Assembly (NCBI RefSeq): GCF_004010195.1
Contig: NC_057717.1
Span: 103,674,631-103,738,630 of the forward strand
DNA from: Chiloscyllium plagiosum
Taxonomy: Eukaryota
Direction: 5' to 3'
DNA length: 64,000 nt
In this document: piece after piece, positions 38,106-62,779 of the stretch
Layout: the number at the start of each line of letters is the position of its first letter
How positions within the stretch are numbered: the stretch's first letter is position 1
Position numbers and translations under genes: made by a program
Notes under the pieces: generated by a model
What the model saw: only the letters and a program-made list of their open reading frames with translations
What the model was told of the DNA's origin: nothing
The model's database searches: none

Positions 38106-38841
38106 TTTTTGTCCTCCCTAGCCCCACACCCAGCCTTCAGTACTGAGCATAGGGAACTCAGTGAGGACTGACTATCGTGGGCTGGTCAGTGACTGCACTC
38201 TTATATGCTCTCTGTCTATTGTTAAAGGGATAGCACTGAGGCCATTCAGAGTAGGCGCAATGAACACCCTGGCCCCTGAGCAGCAATGGAAAGGGTTAAA
38301 CCTCTGAGTGCAGATGGTAAAGACAAAAGGCTTGTATTCCCCTGAGTGCAGAGGTGATCTAATTGCAGTGCTCAAGTTAATGAAAGAATTCAGTACAGAG
38401 AAACAACTTCCTCTAACTGGGCTGGGGAAGGGGTCCTGAACAAGGTTGCATGGGTTGGGGGGGGTGGGGGGTGTGGAGTGGGTTGGCTGAACCTCAAAAT
38501 TCAAGCCAGGTCACTCGAGGGAGCGATGTCAGGGTCAAATTAATGTTTCTAACCTGCAGTTGATATCGGTTTGTCAGGGCTGAGGAACCAAGAGTCAAAA
38601 GGAGTTGAGACAGCGAACAGTGGGACAGACGGGAGGGGCAGAGTGGTCTCAGCCTATTTTTACAGCCAGCCATCCCAGCGCAAGCCAGGGACTACAAAAG
38701 GAACCGATCGCTGTAACTGAGAGCAACTGTTTGTGGTCAGGTGGGGGCAGGGGGCACAGAGAGGGAAGAGGTGAGATCTGTCTGAATGCTTCCACATCTA
38801 TCCCGGCTGACGCGGCCGCCACGGAAGGTGCCGGAACCTAC

Positions 38842-39045
38842 CTGGGACATCTGAGGCCGCAGGTTGATCTCCTTGAGGTTGATGGAGTGAGGCCGGAGGT
38901 TGTTGAGGAGCTGACAGAGGAGGACGCCATCTCTCAGAGCCCAGGCCAAGTCGCAGACCTGAGCGTTGGCCCAGGTCACCCTGTGGTTGGGGGGCAACAC
39001 TTTACACTCGATCAGCCAGTTGGCACACTGCCGCCAGTTCTCCAT
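38842..39045 (-). CDS. VAV1: VAV-family guanine nucleotide exchange factor, first coding exon (N-terminal half of the calponin-homology domain); most likely VAV1, VAV3 not excluded
   Basis: Translates [68 protein letters not shown] (68 codons, 204 nt), the characteristic VAV N-terminus. ATG context is GCGATGG. The exon ends at a phase-0 donor CAG|GTAGGT at the conserved VAV exon-1 boundary. Family call is near certain; the paralogue call rests on WRQ, QVC, ALRD and PH residues (VAV1-like), while [10 protein letters not shown] is VAV3-like. Confidence 0.9.
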
Positions 39046-39189
39046 CGCCCAGGCGGCTCTGGCTGTGATCACACAGACAGAAGGGAGCAGAATTAAACTC
39101 AAAACGCAAACCACCCCCGGCCTGCCACCTGTTCAGCGCATTTCCCGTCTTGACTGTTTCCTCCAGAGAGTAGCTTGTTTTTTGAACCA

Positions 39190-43322: not shown

Positions 43323-46300
43323 TCAGGACCAGGAGTCAGAGTCCACACTGAGGCCGGGAGTCTGTGTCCACACTGAGGCCGGGGGTCTGTGTCCACACTG
43401 AGGCCGGGGGTCTGTGTCCACACTGAGGCCGGGAGTCAGAGTCCACACTAAGGCCGGGAGTTTGTGTCCACACTGAGGCCGGGGGTCTGTGTCCACACTG
43501 AGGCCGGGAGTCTGTGTCCACACTGAGGCCGGGGGTCTGTGTCCACACTGAGGCCAGGAGTTAGAGTCCACACTGAAGCCGGGAGTTAGAGTCCACACTA
43601 AGGCCGGGAGTTTGTGTCCACACTAAGGCCGGGAGTTTGTGTCCACACTGAGGCCAGGAGTCTGTGTCCACACTGAGGCCGGGGGTCTGTGTCCACACTG
43701 AGGCCGGGGGTCTGTGTCCACACTGAGGCCGGGAGTCTGCGTCCACACTGAGGCCGGGAGTCTGAGTCCACTCTGAGGCCGGGAGTCTGAGTACACACGA
43801 AGGCAGGGGGGCTGTGTCCACACTGGGGCCTGGAGTCAGAGTCCACACTGGGGCCGGGTGTTAGAGACCACACTGAGGCCGGGAGTTCGTGTCCACGCTG
43901 GGGCCGGGTGTCTCAGTCTACACTGAGGCCGGGAGTTAGAGACCACACTGAGGCCGGGAGTTAGAGTCACTGGTGCCGGGAGTCTGTGTCCACACTGAGG
44001 CCGGGAGTTAGAGTCCACACAGGGGCCTCGAGTCTGTTTCCACACTGAGGCCGGGAGTTAGAATCCAGATTGAGGCCAGGGGTCTGTGTCCACACTGAGG
44101 CCGGGAGTCTGCGTCCACACTGAGGCCGGGAGTTAGAGTCACTGGGGCCGGGAGTCTGTGTCCACACTGAGGCCGGGAGTCTGTTTCCACACTGAGGCCG
44201 GGAGTTAGAGTCACTGGGGCCGGGAGTCTGTGTCCACACTGAGGCCGGGAGTTAGAGTCCACACAGGGGCCTCAAGTCTGTTTCCACACTGAGGCCGGGA
44301 GTTGAATCCAGATTGAAGCCAGGGGTCTGTGTCCACACTGAGGCCGGGAGTCTGCGTCCACACTGAGGCCGGGAGTCTGAGTCCACACTAAGGCCAGGAG
44401 TCAGAGTCCACACTGAGGCCGGAATTACAGAGTCCACACTGAAGCCGGGAATTAGAGACCACACTGAGGCCGGGTGTAAGAGACCACACTGAGGCCGGGG
44501 GACTGTGCCCATACTGAGGCCAGGGGACTTTGTCCACACTGAGGCCAGGAGTTAGAGTCACTGGGGCCGGGAGTCTGTGTCCACACTGATTCCAAGAGTC
44601 TGTGTCCACACTGCCGGGAGTCTGTGTCCACACTCATTCCAAGAGTCTGTGTCCACACTGAGGCCGGGAGTTAGAATCCACACTGAGGCCGGCTGTCTGT
44701 GTCCACACTGAGGCCGGGTGTTAGAGACCACACTGGGGCCGCGAGTCTGTGTCCACACAGGGGCCGGCTGTCAGAGTCCACAATGAGGCCGGGAGTTAGA
44801 GACCACTCAGAGGCCAGGAGGTAAAGACCACGCCGTGATCGGGGGTCTGCGTCCACACGGAGGCCGGGAGTCTGCGTCCACACGGAGGCCGGGAGTTCGA
44901 GACCACGCAGAGGCCGGGGGTCTGTGTCCACACGGAGGCCGGGGGTCTGAGTACACATGGAGGCCGGGGGTCTGTGTCCACACGGAGGCCGGGGGTCTGA
45001 GTACACATGGAGGCCAGGGGTCTGTGTCCACACTGGGGCCTGGAGTCAGAGTCCACACTGGGGCTGGGAGTCAGAGACCACACTGAGGCTGGGAGTCTGT
45101 GACCACACTGAGGCCTGGAGTCAGAGTCCACTCTGAGGCCAGGAATTAGAAGCCACACTGAGGCCAGGAGTTAGAGACCACATTCAGGTTGGGAGGTAGA
45201 GACCACACTTAGGCCGGGAGATAGAGTCCACACGGAGGCCGGGAGATAGAGTCCACACGGAGGACGGGAGGTAGAGTCCACACTGAGGCTGGGAGTTAGA
45301 GACCACACTGAGGCCGGGGGACTGTGCCCATACTGAGGCCAGGGGACTTTGTCCACACTGAGGCCGGGAATTAGAGTCCACAATGAGGCCGGGAGTTAGA
45401 GTCACTGGGCCGGGAGTCTGTGTCCACACTGATTCCAAGAGTCTGTGTCCACACTGAGGCCGGGAGTCAGAGTCCACACTGAGGCCGGGGGTCTGTGTCC
45501 ACACTGAGGCCGGGAGTCTGAGTCCATACTAAGGCCGGGAGTCAGAGTCCACACTGAGGCCGGGAGGTTGAGTCCACACTAAGGCCAGGAGTCAGAACAT
45601 GAGGCCGGAATTAGAGTCCACACTGAGGCCGGAATTAGAGTCCACACTGAGGCCGGGAATTAGAGACCACACTGCGGCCGGGAATTAGAGACCACACTGA
45701 GGCCGGGGGACTGTGCCCATACTGAGGCCAGGGGACTTTGTCCACACTGAGGCCGGGAGTAGGAGTCCACACTGAGGCCGGACGTTAGACTCCACACTGA
45801 GGCTGAGAGTTAGTGTCCACACTGAGGCCGGGAGTCTCAGTCCATGCTGGGGCCGGGAGTTAGAGACCACACTGAGGCTGGGAGTTAGAGACCACACTGA
45901 GGCTGGGAGTTAGAGTCCACACTGAGGCTGGGAGTTCGAGTCCACACTGAGGCCGGAAGTCTGTGTCTACACTGAGGCCGGGAGTCTGTGTCCACACTGA
46001 GGCCGGGAGTCTGAGTCCACACTGAGGCCGAGAGTCCGTGTCCACACTGAGGCCGGGAGTCTGAGTCCATGCTGAGGCCGGGAGTTTGTGTCCACACTGA
46101 GGCCAGGAGTCTGTGTCCACACTGAGGCCGGGAGTCAGAGTCCACACTGAAGTCGGGAGTCAGAGTCCACACTGAGGCCGGGAGTCAGAGTCGACACTGA
46201 GGCCGGGAGTCAGAACATGAGGCCGGAATTAGAGTCCACACTGAGGCCGGAATTAGAGTCCACACTGAGGCCGGGAATTAGAGAGTCCACACTGAAGCCG

Positions 46301-49300
46301 GGAATTAGAGACCACACTGTGGCCGGGTAGTAAGAGACCACACTGAGGCCGAGAGTCAGAGTCCACACTGAGGCCGGGGGTCTGTGTCCACACTGAGGCC
46401 GGGAGTCTGAGTCCACACTGAGGCCGGGAGGTTGAGTCCACACTAAGGCCAGGAATTAGAGAGTCCACACTGAAGCCGGGAATTAGAGACCACACTGTGG
46501 CCGGGTAGTAAGAGACCACACTGAGGCCGGGGGACTGTGCCCATACTGAGGCCAGGGGACTTTGTCCACACTGAGGCCGGGAGTAAGAGTCCACACTGAG
46601 GCCGGAGGTTAGACTCCACACTGAGGCTGAGAGTTAGTGTCCACACTGGGGCCAGGAATCTCAGTCCATGCTGGGGCCGGGAGTTAGAGACCACTCTGAG
46701 GCTGGGAGTTAGAGTCCACACTGAGGCCAGGAGTTAGAGTCCACACTGAGGCTGGGAGTTAGAGTCCACACTGAGGCCGGGAGTCAGAGTCCACACTGAG
46801 GCCGGGAGTCAGAGTCCACACTGAGGCCGGAAGTCTGTGTCCACACTGAGGCCAGGAGTTAGAGTCCACACAGGGGCCTCGAGTCTGTTTCCACACTGAG
46901 GCCGGGAGTTAGAGTCCAGATTGAGGCCAGGGGTCTGTGTCCACACTGAGGCCGGGAGTTAGAGTCCAGATTGAGGCCAGGGGTCTGTGTCCACACTGAG
47001 GCCGGGAGTCTGCGTCCACACTGAGGCCGGGATTCTGTGTCCACACTGAGGCCGGGTGTCTGTGTCCACACTGAGGCCGGGAGTTAGAGTCCACACTGAG
47101 GCTGGGAGTTAGAGTCCACTCAGGGGCCTCGAGTCTGTTTCCACACTGAGGCCGGGAGTTAGAATCCACACAGGGGCCTCGAGTCTGTTTCCACACTGAG
47201 GCCGGGAGTTAGAATCCAGATTGAGGCCAGGGGTCTGTGTCCACACTGAGGCCGGGTGTCTGCGTCCACACTGAGGCCGGGAGTTAGAGTCACTGGGGCC
47301 GGGAGTCTGTGTCCACACTGAGGCCATGAGTTAGAGTCCACACAGGGGCCTCTAGTCTGTTTCCACACTGAGGCCGGGAGTTAGAGTCACTGGGGCCGGG
47401 AGTCTGTGTCCACACTGAGGCCGGGAGTTAGAATCCAGATTGAGGCCAGGGGTCTGTGTCCACACTGAGGCCGGGAGTCTGCGTCCACACTGAGGCTGGG
47501 AGTCTGAGTCCACACTAAGGCCGGGAGTCAGAGTCCACACTAAGGCCGGAATTAGAGAGTCCACACTGAAGCCGGGAATTAGAGACCACACTTAGGCCGG
47601 GTGTAAGAGACCACACTGAGGCCGGGGGACTGTGCCCATACTAAGGCCAGGGGACTTTGTCCACACTGAGGCCAGGAGTTAGAGTCACTGTGGCCGGGAG
47701 TCTGCGTCCACACTGAGGCCGAGAGTTAGAGTCACTGGGGCTGGGAGTCTGTGTCCACACTGATTCCAAGAGTCTGTGTCCACACTGAGGCCGGGGGTCT
47801 GTGTCCACACTGAGGCCGGGAGTCTGAGTCCATGCTGAGGCCGGGAGTCTGAGTCCACACTGAGGCTGGGAGTTTGTGTCCACACTGAGGCCAGGAGTCT
47901 GTGTCCACACTGAGGCCGGGAGTCAGAGTCCACACTGAGGTCGGGAGTCAGAGTCCACACTGTGGCCGAGAGTTAGAGTCACTGGGGCTGGGAGTCTGTG
48001 TCCACACTGATTCCAAGAGTCTGTGTCCACACTGAGGCCGGGGGTCTGTGTCCACACTGAGGCCGGGGGTCTGTGTCCACACTGAGGCCGGGGTCTGTGT
48101 CCACACTGAGACCTGGAATTAGAGTCCACACTGAGGCCGGGAGTCTGTGTCCACACTGAGTCCGAGAGTCTGTGTCCACACGGAGGCCGGGAGTTAGAGT
48201 CCACACAGGGGCCTCGTGTCTGTGTCCATGCTGAGGCCAACAGACTGTGTCCACACTGAGGCTGGGAGTTAGGGTCACTGGGGCCGGGGGTCTGTGTCCG
48301 CACTGAGGCCGGGAGTTAGAGTCACTGGGGCCGGGAGACTGTGTCCACACTGAGTCCGAGAGTCTGTGTCCACACGGAGGCCGGGAGTTAGAGTCCACAC
48401 AGGGGCCTCGTGTCTGTGTCCACACTGAGGCCAACAGACTGTGTCCACACTGAGGCCGGGAGTCAGAGTCCACACTGAGGCTGGGGAGTCTGTGTCCACA
48501 CTGATTCCAAGAGTCAGAGTCCACACTGAGGCCGGGAGTCAGAGTCCACACTGAGGCCGGGAGTCTGTGTCCACACCTGATTCCAAGAGTCAGAGTCCAC
48601 ACTGAGGCCGGGAGTCNNNNNNNNNNNNNNNNNNNNNNNNNNNNNNNNNNNNNNNNNNNNNNNNNNNNNNNNNNNNNNNNNNNNNNNNNNNNNNNNNNNN
48701 NNNNNNNNNNNNNNNNNNNNNNNNNNNNNNNNNNNNNNNNNNNNNNNNNNNNNNNNNNNNNNNNNNNNNNNNNNNNNNNNNNNNNNNNNNNNNNNNNNNN
48801 NNNNNNNNNNNNNNNNNNNNNNNNNNNNNNNNNNNNNNNNNNNNNNNNNNNNNNNNNNNNNNGCCGGAATTAGAGTCCACACTGAGGCCGGGAATTAGAG
48901 AGTCCACACTGAAGCCGGGAATTAGAGACCACACTGTGGCCGGGGGACTGTGCCCATACTGAGGCCAGGGGACTTTGTCCACACTGAGGCCGGGAGTAAG
49001 AGTCCACACTGAGGCTGGACGTTAGACTCCACACTGAGGCTGAGAGTTAGTGTCCACACTGGGGCCGGGAGTCTCAGTCCATGCTGGGGCCGGGAGTTAG
49101 AGACCACACTGAGGCTGGGAGTTCGAGTCCACGCTGAGGCTTGGAGTTAGAGTCCACACTGAGGCCAGAAGTCTGTGTCTACACTGAGGCCGGAAGTCTG
49201 TGTCCACACTGAGGCCAGGAGTCTGTGTCCACACTGAGGCCAGGAGTCTGTGTCCACACTGAGGCCGGGGGTCAGAGTCCACACTGAGGCCGGGAATCCG

Positions 49301-50830
49301 TGTCCACACTGAGGCCGGGATTCTGTGTCCACACTGAGGCCGGGATTCTGTGTCCACACTGAGGCCGGGAGTCAGAGTCCACACTGAGGCCGGCTGTCAG
49401 AGTCCACACTGAGGCCAGGAGTTAGAGTCCACACAGGGGCCTCGAGTCTATGTCCACACTGAGGCCGGGAGTTAGAATCCAGATTGAGGCCGGGGGTCTG
49501 TGTCCACACTGAGGCCGGGATTCTGTGTCCACACTGAGGCCGGGAGTCAGAGTCCACACAGAGGCCGGGAGTCAGAGTCCACACCGGGGCCGGCTGTCAG
49601 AGTCCACACTGAGGCCGGGAGTTAGAGACCACACAGAGGCCAGGAGGTAAAGACCACGCGGAGGCCGAGGGTCTGAGTACACACGAAGGCAGGGGGTCTG
49701 TGTCCACACTGGGGCCGGGTGTTAGAGACCACACTGAGGCCGGGAGTTAGAGTCACTGGGGCCGAGAGTCTGTGTCCACACTGAGGCCGGGAGTTAGAGT
49801 CCACACAGGGGCCTCGAGTCTGTTTCCACACTGAGGCTGGGAGTTAGAATCCAGATTGAGGCCAGGGGTCTGTGTCCACTCTGAGGCCGGGAGTCAGAGT
49901 CCACACTGAGGCCGGGAGTCAGAGTCCACACTAAGGCCGGGAGTCAGAGTCCACACTGAGGCCGGGAGGTTGAGTCCACACTAAGACCAGGAGTCAGAAC
50001 ATGAGGCCGGAATTAGAGTCCACACTGAGGCCGGAATTAGAGTCCACACTGAGGCGGGGAATTAGGCCGGGGGACTGTGCCCATACTGAGGCCAGGGGAC
50101 TTTGTCCACACTGAGGCCGGGAGTAAGAGTCCACACTGAGGCTGGACGTTAGACTCCACACTGAGGCTGAGAGTTAGTGTCCACACTGGGGCCGGGAGTT
50201 AGTGTCCACAGTGGGGCCAGGAATCTCAGTCCACACTGGGGCCAGGAATCTCAGTCCATGCTGGGGCCGGGAGTTAGAGACCACACTGAGGCTGGGAGTT
50301 CGAGTCCACACTGAGGCCGGAAGTCTGTGTCTACACTGAGGCCGGGAGTCTGTGTCCACACTGAGGCCGGGAGTCCGTGTCCACACTGAGGCCGGGAGTC
50401 AGAGTCCACACTGAGGCCGGGAGTCAGAGTCCATGCTGAGGCCGGGAGTCTGAGTCCACACTGAGGCCGGGAGTCTGTGTCCACACTGAGGCCAGGAGTC
50501 TGTGTCCACACTGAGGCCGGGAGTCCGTGTCCACACTGAGGCCGGGAGTCAGAGTCCACACTGAGGCCGGGAGTTAGAGACCACACTGAGGCCAGGAGTC
50601 TGAGTCCATGCTGAGGCCGGGAGTTAGAGACCACGCTGAGGCCGGGAGTCTGAGTCCACACTGAGGCCGGGAGTCTGAGTCCATGCTGAGGCCGGGAGTC
50701 TGAGTCCACGCTGAGGCCCAGAGTCAGAGTCCACACTGAGGCCGGGAGCCTGAGTCCACACTGAGGCCGGGAGTCTGAGTCCACACTGAGGCCGGGAGTC
50801 TGAGTCCATGCTGAGGCCGGGAGTCCACAC
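43323..50830. repeat. ~7.5-kb satellite/minisatellite, 25-bp unit (GTCCACACTGAGGCCGGGAGTCTGT and variants), roughly 300 units, with an internal gap
   Basis: Tandem periodicity is directly visible. It accounts for all the WTQTPGLSVDTDSRPQCG-type ORFs. Confidence 0.97.
48617..48862. other. Assembly gap (N) inside the satellite
   Basis: Run of N. Confidence 1.
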
Positions 50831-52734: not shown

Positions 52735-53300
52735 CAGATTGAGTTTAATTTGGATAAACGCGAGGTATTGCATTTGGTAAAAACATACCAGGGCAGGAGT
52801 TACACAATCGGTGCTAAGGTCCGGGTAGTGCTGTAAAACAGAGAGACCTCAGGAACATAATTCTTTGAAGTTTGCGTCACAGGTACGCAGGGTGGTTAAG
52901 AAGGCGTTTAGCGCTTAGCCTTCATTGCTCAGATTTTTGAGTGTAGGAGTTGGGACATCAAGTTGAGGACATGAGTGAGGCCTCTTCTGGAGCACTGTGT
53001 ACAGGAAGGATATCATTAAATTAGAGAGGGTTCAGAAAAGATTTACCAGGATGGAGGGTTTGACGTATGCAAATAATCTGGAAAGGCCTGGTCCTGTTTC
53101 CAGGAGCTGAGGAGGTTAAATTGTGAACTCACTGAGGTTTATAAAATCATGAGGGGCACAGAGAAGGTGAATGACAGAGGTCTTTTCCCTAATGTGTGGG
53201 AGTTCAAAACCAGGGGGCATTATTTTTAAGATGAGGGGGAGAAAGATTTAAAAAGGATATGAGGGCCGACTTTGTTTACATAGAGAGTGGTTTGTATGTG
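52735..53300 (+). mobile_element. CR1 LINE fragment
   Basis: Degenerate VVKKAF, LERVQKRFTRM and EVYKIMRG segments. Confidence 0.8.
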
Positions 53301-53539
53301 GAATTAAATTGAATTAGCTTTATCTTCACTCATAGTCGTGTGTGTACAGTGAAATGTTTATCAGTGACCACTTACAGCACCATCTTATGTACAGAGTACT
53401 AGGTATAATCCTTAGTTACAGAATAGAGGATTTAGGAAAATGGTTACAGCACAGCTATACACAGTATGATCAGAGGTCAGAAACACAAGAAGCAAAGTTA
53501 AAAAGACAAAGCATCACGTTCTCTCTGCAGCAGACCAAC

Positions 53540-53843
53540 ACAGCGGGCCTCCTGACTGCTGTTACACTGGGCCACAGTCCAGGTTCGATCCAACCCTCGG
53601 GTGTCTGTGTGGGGTTTGCACATTCGCCCCGTGGGTTTCCTCCCACAGTCCAAAGATGTGCAGCTTAGGTGGATTGGCCGTGCTACATTATGCCGTAGTG
53701 TCCAGCCTATTAACACAGGAAATGCAGAGTGGGTCTAGGTCGGTGTGGACTAGATGGGCCGAATGGCCTGCTTCCACACTACAGGGATCGAAGGCTGGAA
53801 TCGAACCCGGGTACCCAGCGCCGTGAGGGAGCAGTGCTAGCCA
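53540..53843. mobile_element. Degenerate HE1-type SINE (+) abutting an inverted HE1 tRNA head (-)
   Basis: V-domain and tail at 53600-53790; GGCTGGAATCGAACCCGGG...CCACTGAGCCACCG at 53793-53843. Confidence 0.8.
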
Positions 53844-54097
53844 CTGAGCCACCGCATCGCCCCCTTGGTGAGTGCCTTGTGCAGAAGTGAAGAGATTGTG
53901 AGGGAATTCCAGATGTGGAGTGGTGGGCGGTTATGTCCCAGCAGCTATCCAAGTCCTGCAGCTCATACGCGGCACATCCAGCCCGACAGCCTCACCTTGG
54001 TGAAGTGGGAACTGTGCCCGTGATTGTCTGACTCCGGCCAGGTGATGCCCTGACACGTCCCTGGTTGCCCTTTAAGAATGGCTTGCCTCACCCCTGC

Positions 54098-54550
54098 GTG
54101 ACTCAGCAGAAAAAGCAAAACCGTTGCGAGGGGGAATGACGGCCCGTAAAACGAGCAGGCTGTGCCTCCAGAACCCTCCTTACCTCTGTCTCCCTGAGCG
54201 ATCGCTCCCGATGACTGAGTGTAGAGAGTAGGGCAGCCTGCAGACAATGGAGTAAATGGTCAGGCAATAGCTGGAACTCCATGGGTCCTGGGTGCCACTC
54301 CCTGGGCTAAGGCACTACAGTGACTCAGCATTCCTCTTCGCCCCGAAGGGATTCTGCACTGTCACGGGCTCGTTCATTGTCCCCGAACACAACAGTGACT
54401 CAGCATTCCTCACGCATTGTCACTTGGACACGAATGAAAAGGCAGGAATTCTGCACTGTCATGGTTAGTTCATTCACTCGGTGCCCAGTAATGAGTCAAC
54501 TAACTGATTGTGACAGATTTCCCTCCCGGGCTAGAGGCACATGACAGTGC
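54098..54550. promoter_or_regulatory. Cluster of antioxidant response elements (NRF2/NF-E2-sMAF sites, RTGACnnnGC)
   Basis: GTGACTCAGCA at 54098, 54320 and 54395 (+). GTGACAGTGCA at 54355-54365, GTGACAATGCG at 54413-54423 and ATGACAGTGCA at 54452-54462 (-). ATGACAGTGC at 54541 (+). AP-1 site TGAGTCA at 54492. GCLM is an established NRF2 target. Confidence 0.85.
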
Positions 54551-54676
54551 TGGCTATCGGTTGCACGCTCAGTTCATTGACTGAGTGCCCAGCAGTGAGT
54601 CCCACCCACTGGAGCGGACTGTTCAGTCCTTAAACTCTGTGCTTTCTTCTGGCTGGTTCCTCGCCTGTATTTCCCC

Positions 54677-54730
54677 TGACGTGGGTGTGCCTCAGTGATG
54701 CCTTAGAGCAGGAATTCCCTGTTTATAAAC
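54677..54730 (+). promoter_or_regulatory. Putative core promoter of the GCLM-like gene (TATA box with CRE-like, CACCC and NF-kB-like motifs)
   Basis: TATAAA at 54724-54729, ~135 bp upstream of the ATG with no intervening ATG; TGACGTG at 54677; GGGTGTG at ~54683; GGAATTCCC at 54711. Confidence 0.6.
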
Positions 54731-54861
54731 CGATTAGAGGAGAGGAATTACTTGTGGCTCTACTAGTGTTTGAGGAACTCTGTTAGAATCAACACAGCTG
54801 AACTCACTCAGATAAAAGCCAGCACCTCCAGCACTTTCCAGAAAGCACCTTGCCGGCAAAC

Positions 54862-54892
54862 ATGACTGAAGACAAGAACGAAATCTTTAATC
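54862..54892 (+). CDS. GCLM: GCLM-like, start of first coding exon (MTEDKNEIFN...), truncated by an assembly gap
   Basis: First ATG downstream of the TATA box at 54724, in good Kozak context (GCAAACATGA), and directly upstream of the exon-2 equivalent. The conserved exon-1 motif (HLQTGNLLNWG) is not visible and would fall in the N run. A candidate donor CAG|GTTTGT lies just after the gap at 55406/55407. Confidence 0.6.
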
Positions 54893-55392
54893 NNNNNNNN
54901 NNNNNNNNNNNNNNNNNNNNNNNNNNNNNNNNNNNNNNNNNNNNNNNNNNNNNNNNNNNNNNNNNNNNNNNNNNNNNNNNNNNNNNNNNNNNNNNNNNNN
55001 NNNNNNNNNNNNNNNNNNNNNNNNNNNNNNNNNNNNNNNNNNNNNNNNNNNNNNNNNNNNNNNNNNNNNNNNNNNNNNNNNNNNNNNNNNNNNNNNNNNN
55101 NNNNNNNNNNNNNNNNNNNNNNNNNNNNNNNNNNNNNNNNNNNNNNNNNNNNNNNNNNNNNNNNNNNNNNNNNNNNNNNNNNNNNNNNNNNNNNNNNNNN
55201 NNNNNNNNNNNNNNNNNNNNNNNNNNNNNNNNNNNNNNNNNNNNNNNNNNNNNNNNNNNNNNNNNNNNNNNNNNNNNNNNNNNNNNNNNNNNNNNNNNNN
55301 NNNNNNNNNNNNNNNNNNNNNNNNNNNNNNNNNNNNNNNNNNNNNNNNNNNNNNNNNNNNNNNNNNNNNNNNNNNNNNNNNNNNNNNNNNNN
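54893..55392. other. Assembly gap (500 N) within GCLM-like exon 1
   Basis: Run of N. Confidence 1.
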
Positions 55393-55663
55393 GTCTATCA
55401 CACCAGGTTTGTGTTATTGACAGAGCTCTGGGCTCCACTTCCTAATTCACTCTATCTCTTTCTCCTTACTTACTTGCCCTCCTATTGACCAAGATTCCAA
55501 TTATATGTCCCCATATCTCGCAAAGGGTCTCCACAAGCCAGCGGTGCTTGATAATGCCTCCTGGGACACTGAACATGCTATATAAATGCAGGTTGATGTT
55601 GTTACTCTGGGGTGGCCCATCTCTCCACCTTTCGCTACCAAGCCCCTCTGATCTCTTTTCCAG

Positions 55664-55735
55664 GTCCTGGATTGTCTCAAGGCTGCTTTGTGTGACTGGG
55701 GTTCAAAGTGCAACTCTGATCGACCGGAAGGGAAG
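55664..55735 (+). CDS. GCLM: GCLM-like exon 2
   Basis: Polypyrimidine tract and TTTTCCAG| acceptor; VLDCLKAALCDWGSKCNSDRPEGK; |GTGAGT donor; phase 0-0. Aligns by eye with mammalian GCLM LHDCIQKTLNEWSSQINPDLVR. Confidence 0.85.
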
Positions 55736-55859
55736 GTGAGTCTTCATCCTTGGCTACCATGCATCCCAGGCTCTGCTCAGAACTGCAGTGACCTCTCGGG
55801 ACGCTGTGTTCCGATAAGACGCAATGTCAACTTAGGAGAAATCAATCTGCCCTCGCATT

Positions 55860-56562: not shown

Positions 56563-57963
56563 GGGATGGCAGGACTGACATAAGAAAACAGACTGGATCA
56601 GTTTAGGATTCTATTTGCCGGAGTCTTGAAGATTGAGGTGGGGGTGATCTCATAGAAACCTGTGAAATGCTAACAGGCCAAGACAGGGGGAACATGGGAA
56701 GGATGTTCCCAATGACCATGTAGAGTCAAGAACCAGCAGGTCATGGTCTGAGGATACAGGGTAGGCCATTTGGGACTGAGCTGAGAACTGTCTTCGCCCA
56801 GCGAGAGGGGGGAGGGGGGGGTGGTCTGAGGCTTTCTCTGCTACAGGAAGCAATTGAAATCAAAGCACTGAAGATTTGTGAGAAGGAGTTAGATATAGTT
56901 CTGAGGGCTAAAGGAAGAAAGGAGAACAGGGGACTGAGTTGGATGGTTAGCCATGATCCTGATGAATGGCACACCAGGTTTGAAGGGCCGGTTCTTGTTT
57001 TCAGTGTTTAATCTCTCCCGATCATAGATCTCCTCTGTTTCCCCAGTGGATCGCTGCCAGTCTCAGGCCCACAGCTGGGAAAATTGAATCAGCCACGATC
57101 CTATTGTATGCCTGGGAGGGCTTACCACAACTAGACACAGGAGGGGTGGACCTGAGAGAAGTCATTTCCCCTTGACCCTTGACCCTGCCTTCTCCACCCT
57201 CTGATCATCAGCTCTCACGCTGATTGGTGGAGCAATCGATCACTGAGCATCCCTTGACGACATTTCATTGGCTCACCCCTAGCCAGCATTGAGGGTCCAC
57301 CAGCCTTCCCTGATTGGATAGTGGACCTGTTCCCTGGCCTTGGATTGACTGAGATGTTGTAAAGAGACCAGAGGCACCTGCAGTATTTGGCTTTCACTCC
57401 CACCCCTCTGGGGCTCACGTTCCACCTCTCCATGGCGTTGGCTGTTTCTTGGGTATATTTTTAATCTCTAAGCCACCTCATCCTCCCACCCGGTTTAATG
57501 CCGTCTGCAAGCTCAGATAGCTGGGCTCCAAGCACTGAGCGCTGTGCTAAGATCACCAAAGTCCCACTCCCTCATTAGAGAGAGGGGTAACTGTTTAAAC
57601 CTGGGGCTCACCACACCTTAGGGAAGGGGTGAGGTTGAGATGACAGGATGTTCACAGCCACCCCAGCAGACATGGGCATTGAACCTATGCTGTCAGAGTC
57701 ACTTTGACCATCACAATCCAGTCATCCAGCCAACTGAGCTAACCGATCAATCACTGCCCATCGCTCACAAAAAGGCCTGTTTATTTCTAAGCCTCGTTTC
57801 CTTGTCTATCTCTAACCATGAGTAAGAGAAAGACTAAAGATAAGAATTCAAAAGCATTCGATCTCTTTATTTGGTTGGTTGTTATTCTGTTTAACATCGG
57901 TTTAGTTATTAACACTGCCTTTTTATTTATCTCCCGCGTCTCTCTACTGACCAGTTTCACCAG

Positions 57964-58048
57964 GCGTTACCCGAGCACCTGGTCTGTAACCTGATTCAAC
58001 CGACAGAGAGGATTGACCCTGATGAGAGAGAGGATATCCGGATATCAG
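57964..58048 (+). CDS. GCLM: GCLM-like exon 3
   Basis: CAG| acceptor; ALPEHLVCNLIQPTERIDPDEREDIRIS plus G; |GTAGGT donor; 85 nt, phase 0-1. Matches GCLM ...EKINPDEREEMKVS. An in-frame alternative acceptor 9 nt upstream (CCAG ending 57954) would add FHQ. Confidence 0.9.
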
Positions 58049-58505
58049 GTAGGTGCTCCATCAGGGAGAGGCACTGTCCGCCTAGTTACAGAGCTCGCGA
58101 ATCAAGGGCTGCTATTGACAGGGACAAGAGGCATTCCATCCACTGAGCTAACCATTAACACTGGGCAAAGGTGAAACACATCAGTCCTCCATCTTCAGGA
58201 GGAGTGGCACAGTTACCATCAGAAATGGGAACAGGATGAGGCCATTCAGCCCCTCAGGCCTGCTCTGCCATTCAATAGGATCACCGCTGATCGTGCCCTT
58301 TCCCTGGAACCCTGGATTCCCTGAATGGTCAGGAATCTATCTCATCCTTAAATATACAGAAGGGCTCTGCCCCCACCGCTCCCTGTGGCAAGGTGTTCCA
58401 AAGTCTCCCAGCCCTCAGAGAGAAGATGTTCCTCCTCAGCTCAGGCTTACATTGGTGCCCCGTGATTCTGAGACTGTGCCCCAATCCGTGACTCTCCCTA
58501 TCACT

Positions 58506-59109
58506 GTCACCTCCTCCAGCCCCTACATCCCCTCCCTATCTCTGTAAACCTCCTCCAGCCTCTACACCCCCTCCCTATCTCTGTAACCTTCCCCAGCACC
58601 TACACCCCCTCCCTATCTCTGTAACCTTCCCCAGCACCTACACCCCCTCCCTATCTCTGTAACCTTCCCCAGCACCTACACCCCCTCCCTATCTCTGTAA
58701 CCTTCCCCAGCACCTACACCCCCTCCCTATCTCTGTAACCTTCCCCAGCACCTACACCCCCTCCCTATCTCTGTAACCTTCCCCAGCACCTACACCCCCT
58801 CCCTATCTCTGTAACCTTCCCCAGCACCTACACCCCCTCCCTATCTCTGTAACCTTCCCCAGCACCTACACCCCCTCCCTATCTCTGTAACCTTCCCCAG
58901 CACCTACACCCCCTCCCTATCTCTGTAACCTTCCCCAGCACCTACACCCCCTCCCTATCTCTGTAACCTTCCCCAGCACCTACACCCCCTCCCTATCTCT
59001 GTAACCTTCCCCAGCACCTACACCCCCTCCCTATCTCTGTAATCTCCTCCAGCCCCTACACCTCCTCCCTATCTCTGTCACCTCCTCCAGCCCCTACACC
59101 CCCTCCCTA
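58506..59109 (+). repeat. 38-bp minisatellite (TACACCCCCTCCCTATCTCTGTAACCTTCCCCAGCACC) in GCLM-like intron 3
   Basis: Near-identical units recur every 38 bp (58563, 58601, 58639...) and run into an N gap. Degenerate units (CCCTATCTCTGTAACCTCCTCCAGCCCCTAC, PYLCNLLQPY) resemble an L2-type LINE C-terminus. Confidence 0.93.
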
Positions 59110-60365: not shown

Positions 60366-60503
60366 AAGATAGGGAGGGGGTGTAGGGCCTGGAGGAGGTT
60401 ACAGAGATAGAGAGGAGTGCAGGGCTGGAGGGGTTGACTGAGATAGGAATCTGTTTACTTTAATTGCTTGTACTTCCTGACCTCATATTTCTCCTTCCCA
60501 CAG

Positions 60504-60560
60504 CCAAACTGTTCATCTGTCAATCTGACTTAAGGACTGTTAAGGAGGCGGTGATGTGTG
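60504..60560 (+). CDS. GCLM: GCLM-like exon 4
   Basis: CTCCTTCCCACAG| acceptor; (A)KLFICQSDLRTVKEAVMC; |GTAAGT donor; phase 1-1. The AKLFI motif is typical of GCLM. Confidence 0.92.
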
Positions 60561-61627
60561 GTAAGTGAGATTGCCAGTTGGGAGAACCATAAGAGAGGGG
60601 TCTGTCCTCTGTCTGTTTTGTGTGTCTGGGACTGTCAGAGACATTGACATTACAACTGAGCTCTTTACTATGAATTTCCCAGAATCTGCAGGATTTGCCT
60701 GAGATTTCTCTTTGAGATGCTGTTGATAACGGTGTACATGGTCAAGACAATGTCTCTTCAGCCTTCCCTCCAGAGTTGAGCACAGGGTTTAACCTCCCTG
60801 TCCAGTGCACTGCTGGGAGAGGGCTACATTGCAGCTGGTGCTGGGAAATTATACCAAGGTGTTCACCCACAGCTCCCATCCAACTGCTCCTGGATAACAG
60901 GCAGCAGAGTCACCATCTCAATGTGAACCCAGAACTCGCTTTTACCCCTGGGCCGCATTCATGACCTGACACCTCTTCACACCGGGCCCTTTGCTGTGTC
61001 TGGGATCCTGCTGTGCACAGGCGGGCTACTGTGGTTGCCTGGGAAAACGCAGAGAAAAGGTCGTGGATATGGCATAAAGTTCTGCTGTGCAACCTCTCTT
61101 GTCCGGTGACCGTTACCTTCAACGGGCTGAATGGCCTCCGTCGGGCCAATCATGACTCCTTGAGGGTCCCTCAGCACATGTCCCAGATCCTCGCTGAAGG
61201 TTAGAAATGGTTCTCCTGTTCCAGCACCTTATTGGGCCAGCAGTGTTCCCTCCAACCTCAGCCTCCATGAGCATCCTCCTCAGCTGTGGGTGCTCCGACC
61301 CCAGAGGAATCCGCTGCCACTCACCTTAGCAATCACCCTGTGTTGTGCGGTTGCCAGCAAGTCCTTGGAAATCTCCTCCTAAATGTATCAAGAATGGTGG
61401 GGGGAGGGGTTCAGTTACAGATTCTCCCCCTCAGCATGGACCCCCTCCAAATGTAATTCTGGTGGGTCCTAAACTCTGGTGTTCACTGTCAAAATATGTG
61501 GTGCTGGAAAAACACAGCAGGTCAGGCAGCATCCGCAGAGCAGGAGAGTCAATGTTTTAAGCATAAGCCCTGTTCACCATCCACCAACGTGCAACTTCCC
61601 TTAATCTCAGGGGTCTGTTCACCATCA

Positions 61628-62040: not shown

Positions 62041-62243
62041 CCTGCTCGGAGCTCGGGGTCAGTCAGCTGGATTCGGTCATTCTCTCAGTTGTGGCCCTGT
62101 CGGAGGAGAACCGGCCAACTCTGGAGGACCTGATGCCTTACTGGAAGGAACTGGAGGTCTTGGTCCAAGGGCAGAAGGTTGCATCCATCGGAGTCTCAGA
62201 CTTGGACCGGGAAGTGCTGGAGGCCTTGTGCCAACACGCTCAG
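62041..62243 (+). CDS. GCLM: GCLM-like exon 5 (aldo-keto-reductase-like fold)
   Basis: TTTCCAATTACAG| acceptor; (A)CSELGVSQLDSVILSVVALSEENRPTLEDLMPYWKELEVLVQGQKVASIGVSDLDREVLEALCQHAQ; |GTATGC donor; 203 nt, phase 1-0. Carries GCLM motifs LGVxQLDSVI, PYWxELE and IGxSDLD. Exons 2-5 join into one open frame. Confidence 0.95.
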
Positions 62244-62779
62244 GTATGCTCCCCACCCCTACACCCCACACACACCCCTCCCCACTCACCCCGGTTTCTC
62301 TTCCGTCACCATTCTCCCGAAGCCTTGTTGCATTTACAGCTCCCCAATTCCTTACCTAGGTGGATATACTCCATCACCGGTGAGGACTTCAGTCAAAGCT
62401 CAGCATGTGTCCCTTTCCAGAGTGTAAACTCTCGCCTGAGCATCCCCTGCATTACTGAGGGACTGCTGCACTGCCAGATATGCTGGGTTTCTGATGAGGT
62501 GTGAAATCCAGGACCTCCTTGGCCTGAGTAATGATGCCACTGGGAGATGAACAGCCACATTCACCTTGACCAGTGTTTGTTCCTCTCTCAACATCGCCAA
62601 CAGAGTGAGTGATCACATCACCGTCTGCTGCTGCACTGTCCCTTCATTAAACATCGAGGATTCCAGAATGACAGACAGAGCCACCCACGTCAGGCTGACT
62701 CCAGGTTCAATCCCTGATCTGACCGCACTGTTCATCAGGTGCAATGGCAGCCGCAGAACCAAAACAGCTTAAAATCGTT

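Follow-up and report, generated by a model that had tools for sequence, protein, structure and literature searches.

A candidate NRF2-type antioxidant response element array at the promoter of a GCLM-like paralogue in the shark Chiloscyllium plagiosum

GCLM is the modifier subunit of glutamate-cysteine ligase and determines how efficiently the rate-limiting step of glutathione synthesis runs; its gene is a textbook NRF2 target. Functional antioxidant response elements (AREs) are described for mammalian GCLM promoters in the cited passages of PMC6259123 and PMC3382959, which report tandem AREs in opposite orientations for the human gene and an ARE together with an AP-1 site for the rat gene. 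Such 11-bp elements are bound by a cap 'n' collar (CNC) basic leucine zipper (bZIP) factor paired with a small MAF protein, of which the CNC partner recognizes the [A/G]TGA half and MAF the TCAGC half, and a 5' purine raises the affinity of Nrf2-MafG about twofold (PMC9756947, in the section consulted). The present analysis concerns positions 54098-54730 of a 64,000-nucleotide stretch of Chiloscyllium plagiosum DNA (the window, contig NC_057717.1), in which seven RTGACNNNGC cores lie upstream of the TATA box of a GCLM-like gene. As in the mammalian promoters, promoter-proximal CNC/small-MAF sites in both orientations are combined with an AP-1 site at a gene of the GCLM family; in contrast to them, the shark array holds seven cores, three of them perfect, where the cited passages speak of 'tandem AREs' or 'an ARE site' (PMC6259123, PMC3382959). 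Based on its sequence, this region is probably a CNC-bZIP/small-MAF (NRF2-type) inducible promoter of a GCLM paralogue, with constitutive and inducible control split between two genes.

In the proposed mechanism, positions 54098-54730 would act as the proximal enhancer, together with the core promoter, of an intact GCLM paralogue of elasmobranchs. The enhancer would be a cluster of CNC-bZIP/small-MAF sites, variously named ARE, electrophile response element (EpRE) or CNC-sMaf-binding element (CsMBE), comprising three perfect RTGASTCAGCA and four weaker cores, and it has grown partly by local duplication of a module with one forward and one reverse site. The array would feed a TATA-box, non-CpG-island core promoter approximately 200 bp downstream. 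Stabilised NRF2, or another CNC factor, could bind the array together with a small MAF and drive strong, switch-like transcription of the paralogue. The paralogue may then supply an inducible modifier subunit to the single GCLC, with canonical GCLM as the putative constitutive source.

The site array and its putative core promoter

A motif scan recovered all seven RTGACNNNGC motifs that an earlier reading of this DNA (the first-pass annotation) had placed on both strands of about 450 bp, including the three perfect ones; the plus strand carries four cores, at 54098, 54320, 54395 and 54541, and the minus strand the other three, at 54356, 54414 and 54453. The A/T-rich 3' flank ascribed to two minus-strand sites was likewise found, those at 54356 and 54453 carrying the ...GTGCAGAAT flank. 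An AP-1 site, a TATA box and the first ATG had been said to follow the array; all three are present, and the TATA box and ATG do lie downstream, whereas the AP-1 site, an instance of the phorbol ester response element (TRE), sits between sites 6 and 7. The features are as follows, with distances given relative to the predicted transcription start at 54750 (CRE, cAMP response element; UTR, untranslated region).

54098..54108, plus strand: ARE site 1, perfect GTGACTCAGCA whose 3' flank is A-rich (gaaaaa), about -652
54320..54330, plus strand: ARE site 2, perfect GTGACTCAGCA within module A, about -430
54355..54365 (core 54356), minus strand: ARE site 3, GTGACAGTGCA then GAAT, module A, about -394
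54395..54405, plus strand: ARE site 4, perfect GTGACTCAGCA, module B, duplicate of site 2, about -355
54413..54423 (core 54414), minus strand: ARE site 5, GTGACAATGCG, in a stretch present in module B and absent from A, about -336
54452..54467 (core 54453), minus strand: ARE site 6, TAACCATGACAGTGCA, duplicate of site 3, about -297
54541..54550, plus strand: ARE site 7, ATGACAGTGC, module C, about -209
54306..54612, plus strand: three local, imperfectly repeated modules, A (54306-54386), B (54381-54505) and C (54520-54612)
54492..54498, plus strand: AP-1/TRE site TGAGTCA, module B, between ARE sites 6 and 7
54677..54684, plus strand: TGACGTGG, a motif of CRE-like or ACGTG-containing type some 73 bp ahead of the predicted start, overlapping a minus-strand CACCC
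54722..54729, plus strand: TATA box TTTATAAA, read from the sequence
54750..54862, plus strand: predicted start (A at 54750) and predicted 5' UTR without an ATG

All three occurrences of the perfect GTGACTCAGCA in the window fall inside the array, within 308 bp of one another, as do six of the nine occurrences of RTGAYNNNGCR and four of the 14 occurrences of TGASTCA. Within the window, the extended consensus TMANNRTGAYNNNGCR (TMAnnRTGAYnnnGCR) is matched by site 6 alone (54452-54467, minus strand), the other six sites of the array failing it. The three perfect sites agree at 10 of 11 positions, 5' purine included, with the CsMBE consensus [A/G]TGA[G/C]TCAGC as printed, with a final T, in the cited part of PMC9756947. 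All features of the full 11-bp CsMBE, namely the 5' purine, the TRE core and the GC extension, are present in these three GTGACTCAGCA sites. The last letter of the CsMBE consensus is otherwise given as A.

The predicted start lies 26 bp past the beginning of TATAAA in the context TTACTTG, and the first ATG, at 54863, is 134 bp downstream of the TATA box with no other ATG in between. The array and promoter region are CpG-poor (CpG observed/expected 0.38-0.53). No tRNA or Rfam family was found in or upstream of the promoter region, and the single-strand DNA fold of the region has z = -2.7.

Other factors that recognize related words could be the main users of these sites. On the opposite strand the three perfect sites read TGCTGAGTCAC, which fits the NF-E2 consensus, so that the promoter might be lineage-restricted (erythroid/haematopoietic or heme-responsive) and gated by p45 NF-E2/small-MAF or BACH1 instead of forming a general NRF2 switch. 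CNC factors are said to share and compete at such elements in the consulted parts of PMC9756947 and PMC12561426, and a CACCC (54683, minus strand) and an AGATAA (54810) are close by. These two words, which the first-pass annotation had offered as an erythroid hint, are indeed present but carry no weight: the window contains 251 CACCC and 106 WGATAR words without local enrichment, no WGATAR occurs in 54050-54760, and the AGATAA lies in the predicted 5' UTR. GCLM-family genes are, moreover, established NRF2 targets according to the cited passages of PMC6259123 and PMC3382959, and a lineage-restricted promoter of this kind is considered improbable. Even less probable is a response of the mitogen, injury or phorbol-ester type conveyed mainly by AP-1 (Jun/Fos) at the TRE cores. 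The array does hold four of the window's TGASTCA words (three TGACTCA and one TGAGTCA), and an AP-1 site is in use at the GCLM promoter of the rat (PMC3382959, cited passage); three of the four TREs, however, bear the marks of a CsMBE, the GC extension and the 5' purine, and the four weaker sites keep TGAC...GC without a TRE, which fits half-site selection by small MAF and does not fit AP-1.

Clustering, local duplication and single-copy status

The RTGACNNNGC total of the window, 16, is not above that of shuffled sequences (mean 14.5, sd 3.7), and the signal is therefore one of clustering: seven of the 16 sites fall in 453 bp (54098-54550). In 150 first-order Markov simulations of the window, scored by the largest count per 460-bp span, the largest cluster had one site in 29 runs, two in 110, three in 10 and four in one. 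A Poisson estimate from the nine sites outside the array gives 1.1e-12 per span, or 1.5e-10 after multiplication by 136 spans. The comparison with a shuffled background suggested at the outset thus places the array far beyond chance through its clustering, with seven sites against a simulated maximum of four.

Part of this density arose by copying. Modules A and B share a first block of 24 nt with the perfect forward site (96% identity, 75-bp spacing) and a second block of 21 nt with the reverse TGACAGTGCAGAAT site (90% identity, 97-bp spacing), between which the sequence is no longer alignable and module B holds the extra reverse site at 54414. Modules B and C share a GTTCATT...GTGCCCAG...TGAGTC block, in which the AP-1 TGAGTCA of B corresponds to a one-mismatch TGAGTCC in C (about 54597). 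The site pairs 54320/54395 and 54356/54453 are copies from the local duplication of an imperfect 75-97-bp module, and since sites 4 and 6 are such copies, the seven sites represent about five independent origins. Site 1 (54098), with a perfect core, stands apart, 222 bp upstream of the modules. No regular array was detected by Tandem Repeats Finder in 53000-55000. The best-kept parts of modules A and B are the ARE-bearing blocks, a pattern that hints at selection without proving it.

The imperfect local copies A, B and C could also be regarded as neutral duplication of a sequence containing chance ARE-like words with little regulatory effect, and the other perfect-ARE pairs of the genome are in fact mostly in satellite-like tandem arrays. 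Against this explanation, which appears as unlikely as that by AP-1, site 1 is independent of the modules and sites 5 and 7 are not copies; the A/B ARE blocks have been kept at 96% and 90% where the intervening sequence no longer aligns; and a position upstream of a TATA box in an ARE-regulated gene family is not expected by chance. A dispersed high-copy repeat, which the first-pass annotation had named among the findings that would overturn its proposal, is ruled out: in a search of the 3.56-Gb assembly that skips very common words, positions 54090-54760 (671 bp) matched only themselves, and a 19-mer around sites 2 and 4 occurs exactly at these two places only, both in the array. Allowing up to two mismatches, this 19-mer has 83 genome matches as compared with 17 for its reversed control. 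One-mismatch copies at G000:C1:116655767 and G000:C16:21612674 (G000 being the assembly and C its contigs) both share the 3' flank GCATTCCTC.

Over the whole 3.56 Gb the perfect 11-mer was counted 2,237 times (1,115 forward, 1,122 reverse), approximately once per 1.6 Mb, as compared with 328 occurrences of the reversed-word control, which contains a CpG. Same-strand pairs 5-300 bp apart number 47 genome-wide against three for the control, and most of the 47 belong to satellite-like arrays on small contigs or to tandem arrays, leaving the GCLM-like promoter among a handful of non-satellite cases. None of the 47 pairs coincides with the heme oxygenase or GCLC loci that were located. Three StRE-like (stress response element-like) GCTGAGTCA/GCTGTGTCAC words lie within about 100 bp (G000:C39:20900349-20900455), approximately 17 kb upstream of a heme oxygenase gene, and a further one (C39:20906654) is located about 11 kb upstream; the heme oxygenase genes form a tandem pair. 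In the scanned heme oxygenase flanks RTGACNNNGC reaches at most two per 460 bp, and the GCLM-like array is the densest case outside satellites among those examined. No ARE core was present in the 20 kb preceding the first Pfam match to GCLC, although the true GCLC promoter was not located, and a six-frame search of the genome for PF02525 (NQO1 family) returned nothing, a result that does not show the family to be missing.

Two tandem structures with the same core were also seen. A GC-rich (0.59) tandem array at G000:C7:8579668-8582724 contains 14 perfect GTGACTCAGC cores in 3 kb (15 RTGACNNNGC in total) and has a near-identical piece on a small unplaced contig. At G000:C14:3101455-3101501, three perfect GTGACTCAGCA words are spaced at exactly 18 bp as a micro-tandem in AT-rich surroundings.

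The GCLM-like gene and its canonical counterpart

The gene downstream of the array was traced by alignment to P0001, the Hemiscyllium ocellatum protein 'glutamate--cysteine ligase regulatory subunit-like isoform X1', which matches Pfam PF00248; a protein-database search gave 257 matches in the GCLM family at E <= 1e-10. The alignment covers five exons in the window, with exons 6 and 7 just beyond its end, and has no stop in the aligned parts. The N-terminus of P0001 coincides with the ATG at 54863, and the array is thus directly upstream of the first coding exon.

54863..54892, plus strand: start codon, opening the first 10 codons (MTEDKNEIFN), of which 9 agree with the N-terminus of P0001; the remaining part of exon 1 is N in the window
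55661..55738, plus strand: exon 2, from alignment to P0001, boundaries approximate
57955..58048, plus strand: exon 3, with its boundaries placed by eye at AG and GT
60500..60562, plus strand: exon 4, approximate
62041..62244, plus strand: exon 5, 68 of 69 residues identical (99%) to P0001

A comparison of exon 5 with solved structures gave no match. The gene had been discussed in terms of mammalian GCLM; rather than the orthologue it is a divergent paralogue, which shares about 50% identity with canonical GCLMs, stands outside their clade and is named in the sources for sharks, rays and skates alone. When the genome was searched with P0001, the window locus and a second locus on C11 (48-64% identity) were found, the latter being presumably canonical GCLM, to judge from the likeness of its exon translations to the human protein. 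The second locus has its first coding exon on the minus strand, at C11:19602699-19602776. GCLC is a single locus, on C3.

The two promoters differ in kind. That of canonical GCLM on C11 is a CpG island (GC 0.59-0.64, CpG observed/expected about 1.0), in which no TATA box was seen by eye in the approximately 640 bp before the start codon. RTGACNNNGC is absent from the 10 kb between about -7.2 kb and +2.7 kb of exon 1, and the 50 kb of C11:19580001-19630000, of which 1,305 bases are N, contain four scattered cores, none with the TCA half. The contrast with a GC-rich GCLM promoter, drawn for mammals by the first-pass annotation, holds within the shark genome. The canonical promoter (G000:C11:19602777-19603400) carries instead GGGGCGGGG motifs and a cluster of TGACGT half-sites: seven of the nine TGACGT words in 10 kb, where 2.08 would be expected over the whole length, fall within about 400 bp before exon 1, a full TGACGTCA among them. 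This composition suggests CREB/ATF-type input and no ARE input. Tandem Repeats Finder returned nothing in this promoter. Since canonical GCLM lies behind a CpG-island promoter that lacks ARE cores, constitutive and stress-inducible supply of the modifier subunit to GCLC would seem to be shared out between the two genes.

The distribution of the paralogue was read from the best 120 of the 257 matches. Within these, GCLM-like proteins (57-100% identity) are present in sharks (Hemiscyllium, Rhincodon, Stegostoma, Heterodontus, Heptranchias and Pristiophorus), rays (Pristis, two Mobula species, Hemitrygon and Narcine) and skates (Amblyraja, Leucoraja and Rhinoraja), and canonical GCLMs, both from several of these species and from Callorhinchus, tetrapods and ray-finned fishes, follow at about 45-52%. 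No holocephalan and no bony-vertebrate protein is found among the like-type proteins at the head of these 120. The gene itself is not special to one hypoxia-tolerant lineage, being common to sharks, rays and skates. Nine skate members are encoded by contigs of 1,046-1,118 nt that contain the full 285 residues; a seven-exon gene on contigs of about 1.1 kb implies spliced mRNA, and hence the paralogue is transcribed in skates. No publication describing a GCLM paralogue turned up in the literature collection that was searched.

In a maximum-likelihood tree of 38 sequences, hand-chosen from the match lists with four invertebrate outgroups and no cyclostome, the like clade (12 sequences) has support 100/100 and a canonical gnathostome clade (22 sequences) excludes it with 98/95. 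Forcing the like clade to join canonical chondrichthyans costs 12.6 log-likelihood units (approximately unbiased test, AU p = 0.02), which favours a duplication older than the split of cartilaginous and bony vertebrates, with the caveats that the like-clade stem is long (0.54), that the constrained group was defined after the tree had been seen and that cyclostomes are not represented. End branches of GCLM-like proteins measure 0.03-0.26 as compared with 0.01-0.08 for canonical proteins of the same species, which suggests faster evolution under relaxed or changed constraint. It is conceivable, though on balance doubtful, that an ancient second GCLM, predating the split and lost elsewhere, carries the whole NRF2/ARE input on a TATA promoter and that the canonical gene, behind its CpG island, serves purely housekeeping needs. 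If so, the inducible and constitutive arms would be hard-wired into two elasmobranch genes, in comparison with the one shared promoter of mammals.

The nearest coding feature upstream is a minus-strand CH-domain open frame at 38740-39132 (PF00307, PF11971), head-to-head with the GCLM-like gene and about 15.6 kb away, which presumably belongs to the first coding exon of a VAV-family exchange factor gene, as it resembles one. A 7.5-kb minisatellite (43332-50825) separates this exon from the array and fills half of the gap. From this arrangement the array is best assigned to the GCLM-like gene.

Three repeated sequences in the window were recorded in addition. The minisatellite at 43332-50825 consists of 301 copies of a 25-bp unit (78% matches) that contains an AP-1-like TGAGTCC. 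Intron 3 of the GCLM-like gene has a 38-bp tandem repeat (58494-59109, 16 copies, 96% matches) that runs into an N stretch. Window positions 56814-58568, exon 3 included, have a 1,755-bp copy at 99.8% identity at G000:C45:3725728-3727482; either a partial segmental duplication took place recently or the copy is an artefact of the assembly.

Weighing of the proposal and comparison with known systems

Several points weigh against an NRF2-type inducible promoter with control divided between two genes. The TCA half is absent from four of the seven sites (TGACAGTGC in three, TGACAATGC in one), and two more RTGACAGTGC sites exist in the window outside the array. Two sites are duplicates, and the count of seven accordingly overstates the independent evidence. 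The sequence fits NRF2, NRF1, NRF3, p45 NF-E2 and BACH1 alike, or AP-1 at the embedded TRE. The array could be specific to one lineage, and a scan with one consensus over 50 kb may leave room for distant or variant ARE sites at canonical GCLM.

If the split between the two genes is real, the shark locus would offer a natural dissection of a promoter that does both jobs in mammals, and a clean case of regulatory subfunctionalisation, in which duplicates divide the ancestral control of expression, in the antioxidant system. A response to oxidants or hypoxia-reoxygenation in elasmobranchs would then be predicted for the paralogue rather than for canonical GCLM. If the array is species-specific or inactive, it would merely be one more ARE-bearing promoter.

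Among known systems, the E1 and E2 enhancers of mammalian HMOX1 are distal, several kb away, and contain multiple StREs. The shark array resembles them in that several CNC/small-MAF sites are clustered in a few hundred bp, and the StRE-like cluster upstream of the shark heme oxygenase gene on C39 also resembles them; the GCLM-like array differs in being promoter-proximal and denser, with seven cores in 460 bp as compared with at most two in the shark heme oxygenase flanks. With the tandem NF-E2 enhancers of erythroid genes it has in common multiple copies of TGCTGAGTCAY words, in contrast to which it lacks GATA/CACCC enrichment and belongs to a gene whose function is glutathione synthesis. Site 2 extended by its 5' ACA reads ACAGTGACTCAGCA, and in this form sites 2 and 4 share 14 of 16 letters with the human NQO1 ARE (TCACAGTGACTCAGCA, as printed in the cited passage of PMC6259123). 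The human element is a single site as printed there, whereas the shark one is duplicated, forms part of a larger array and is attached to another gene. Compared with mammalian GCLM, the shark array is located on the TATA-box, CpG-poor promoter of a paralogue, and near the promoter of the shark orthologue there is no ARE core. Elements of this kind are well known, and what varies here is the density, the TATA setting and, most of all, the location on a separate elasmobranch paralogue whose orthologous counterpart has a promoter without AREs.

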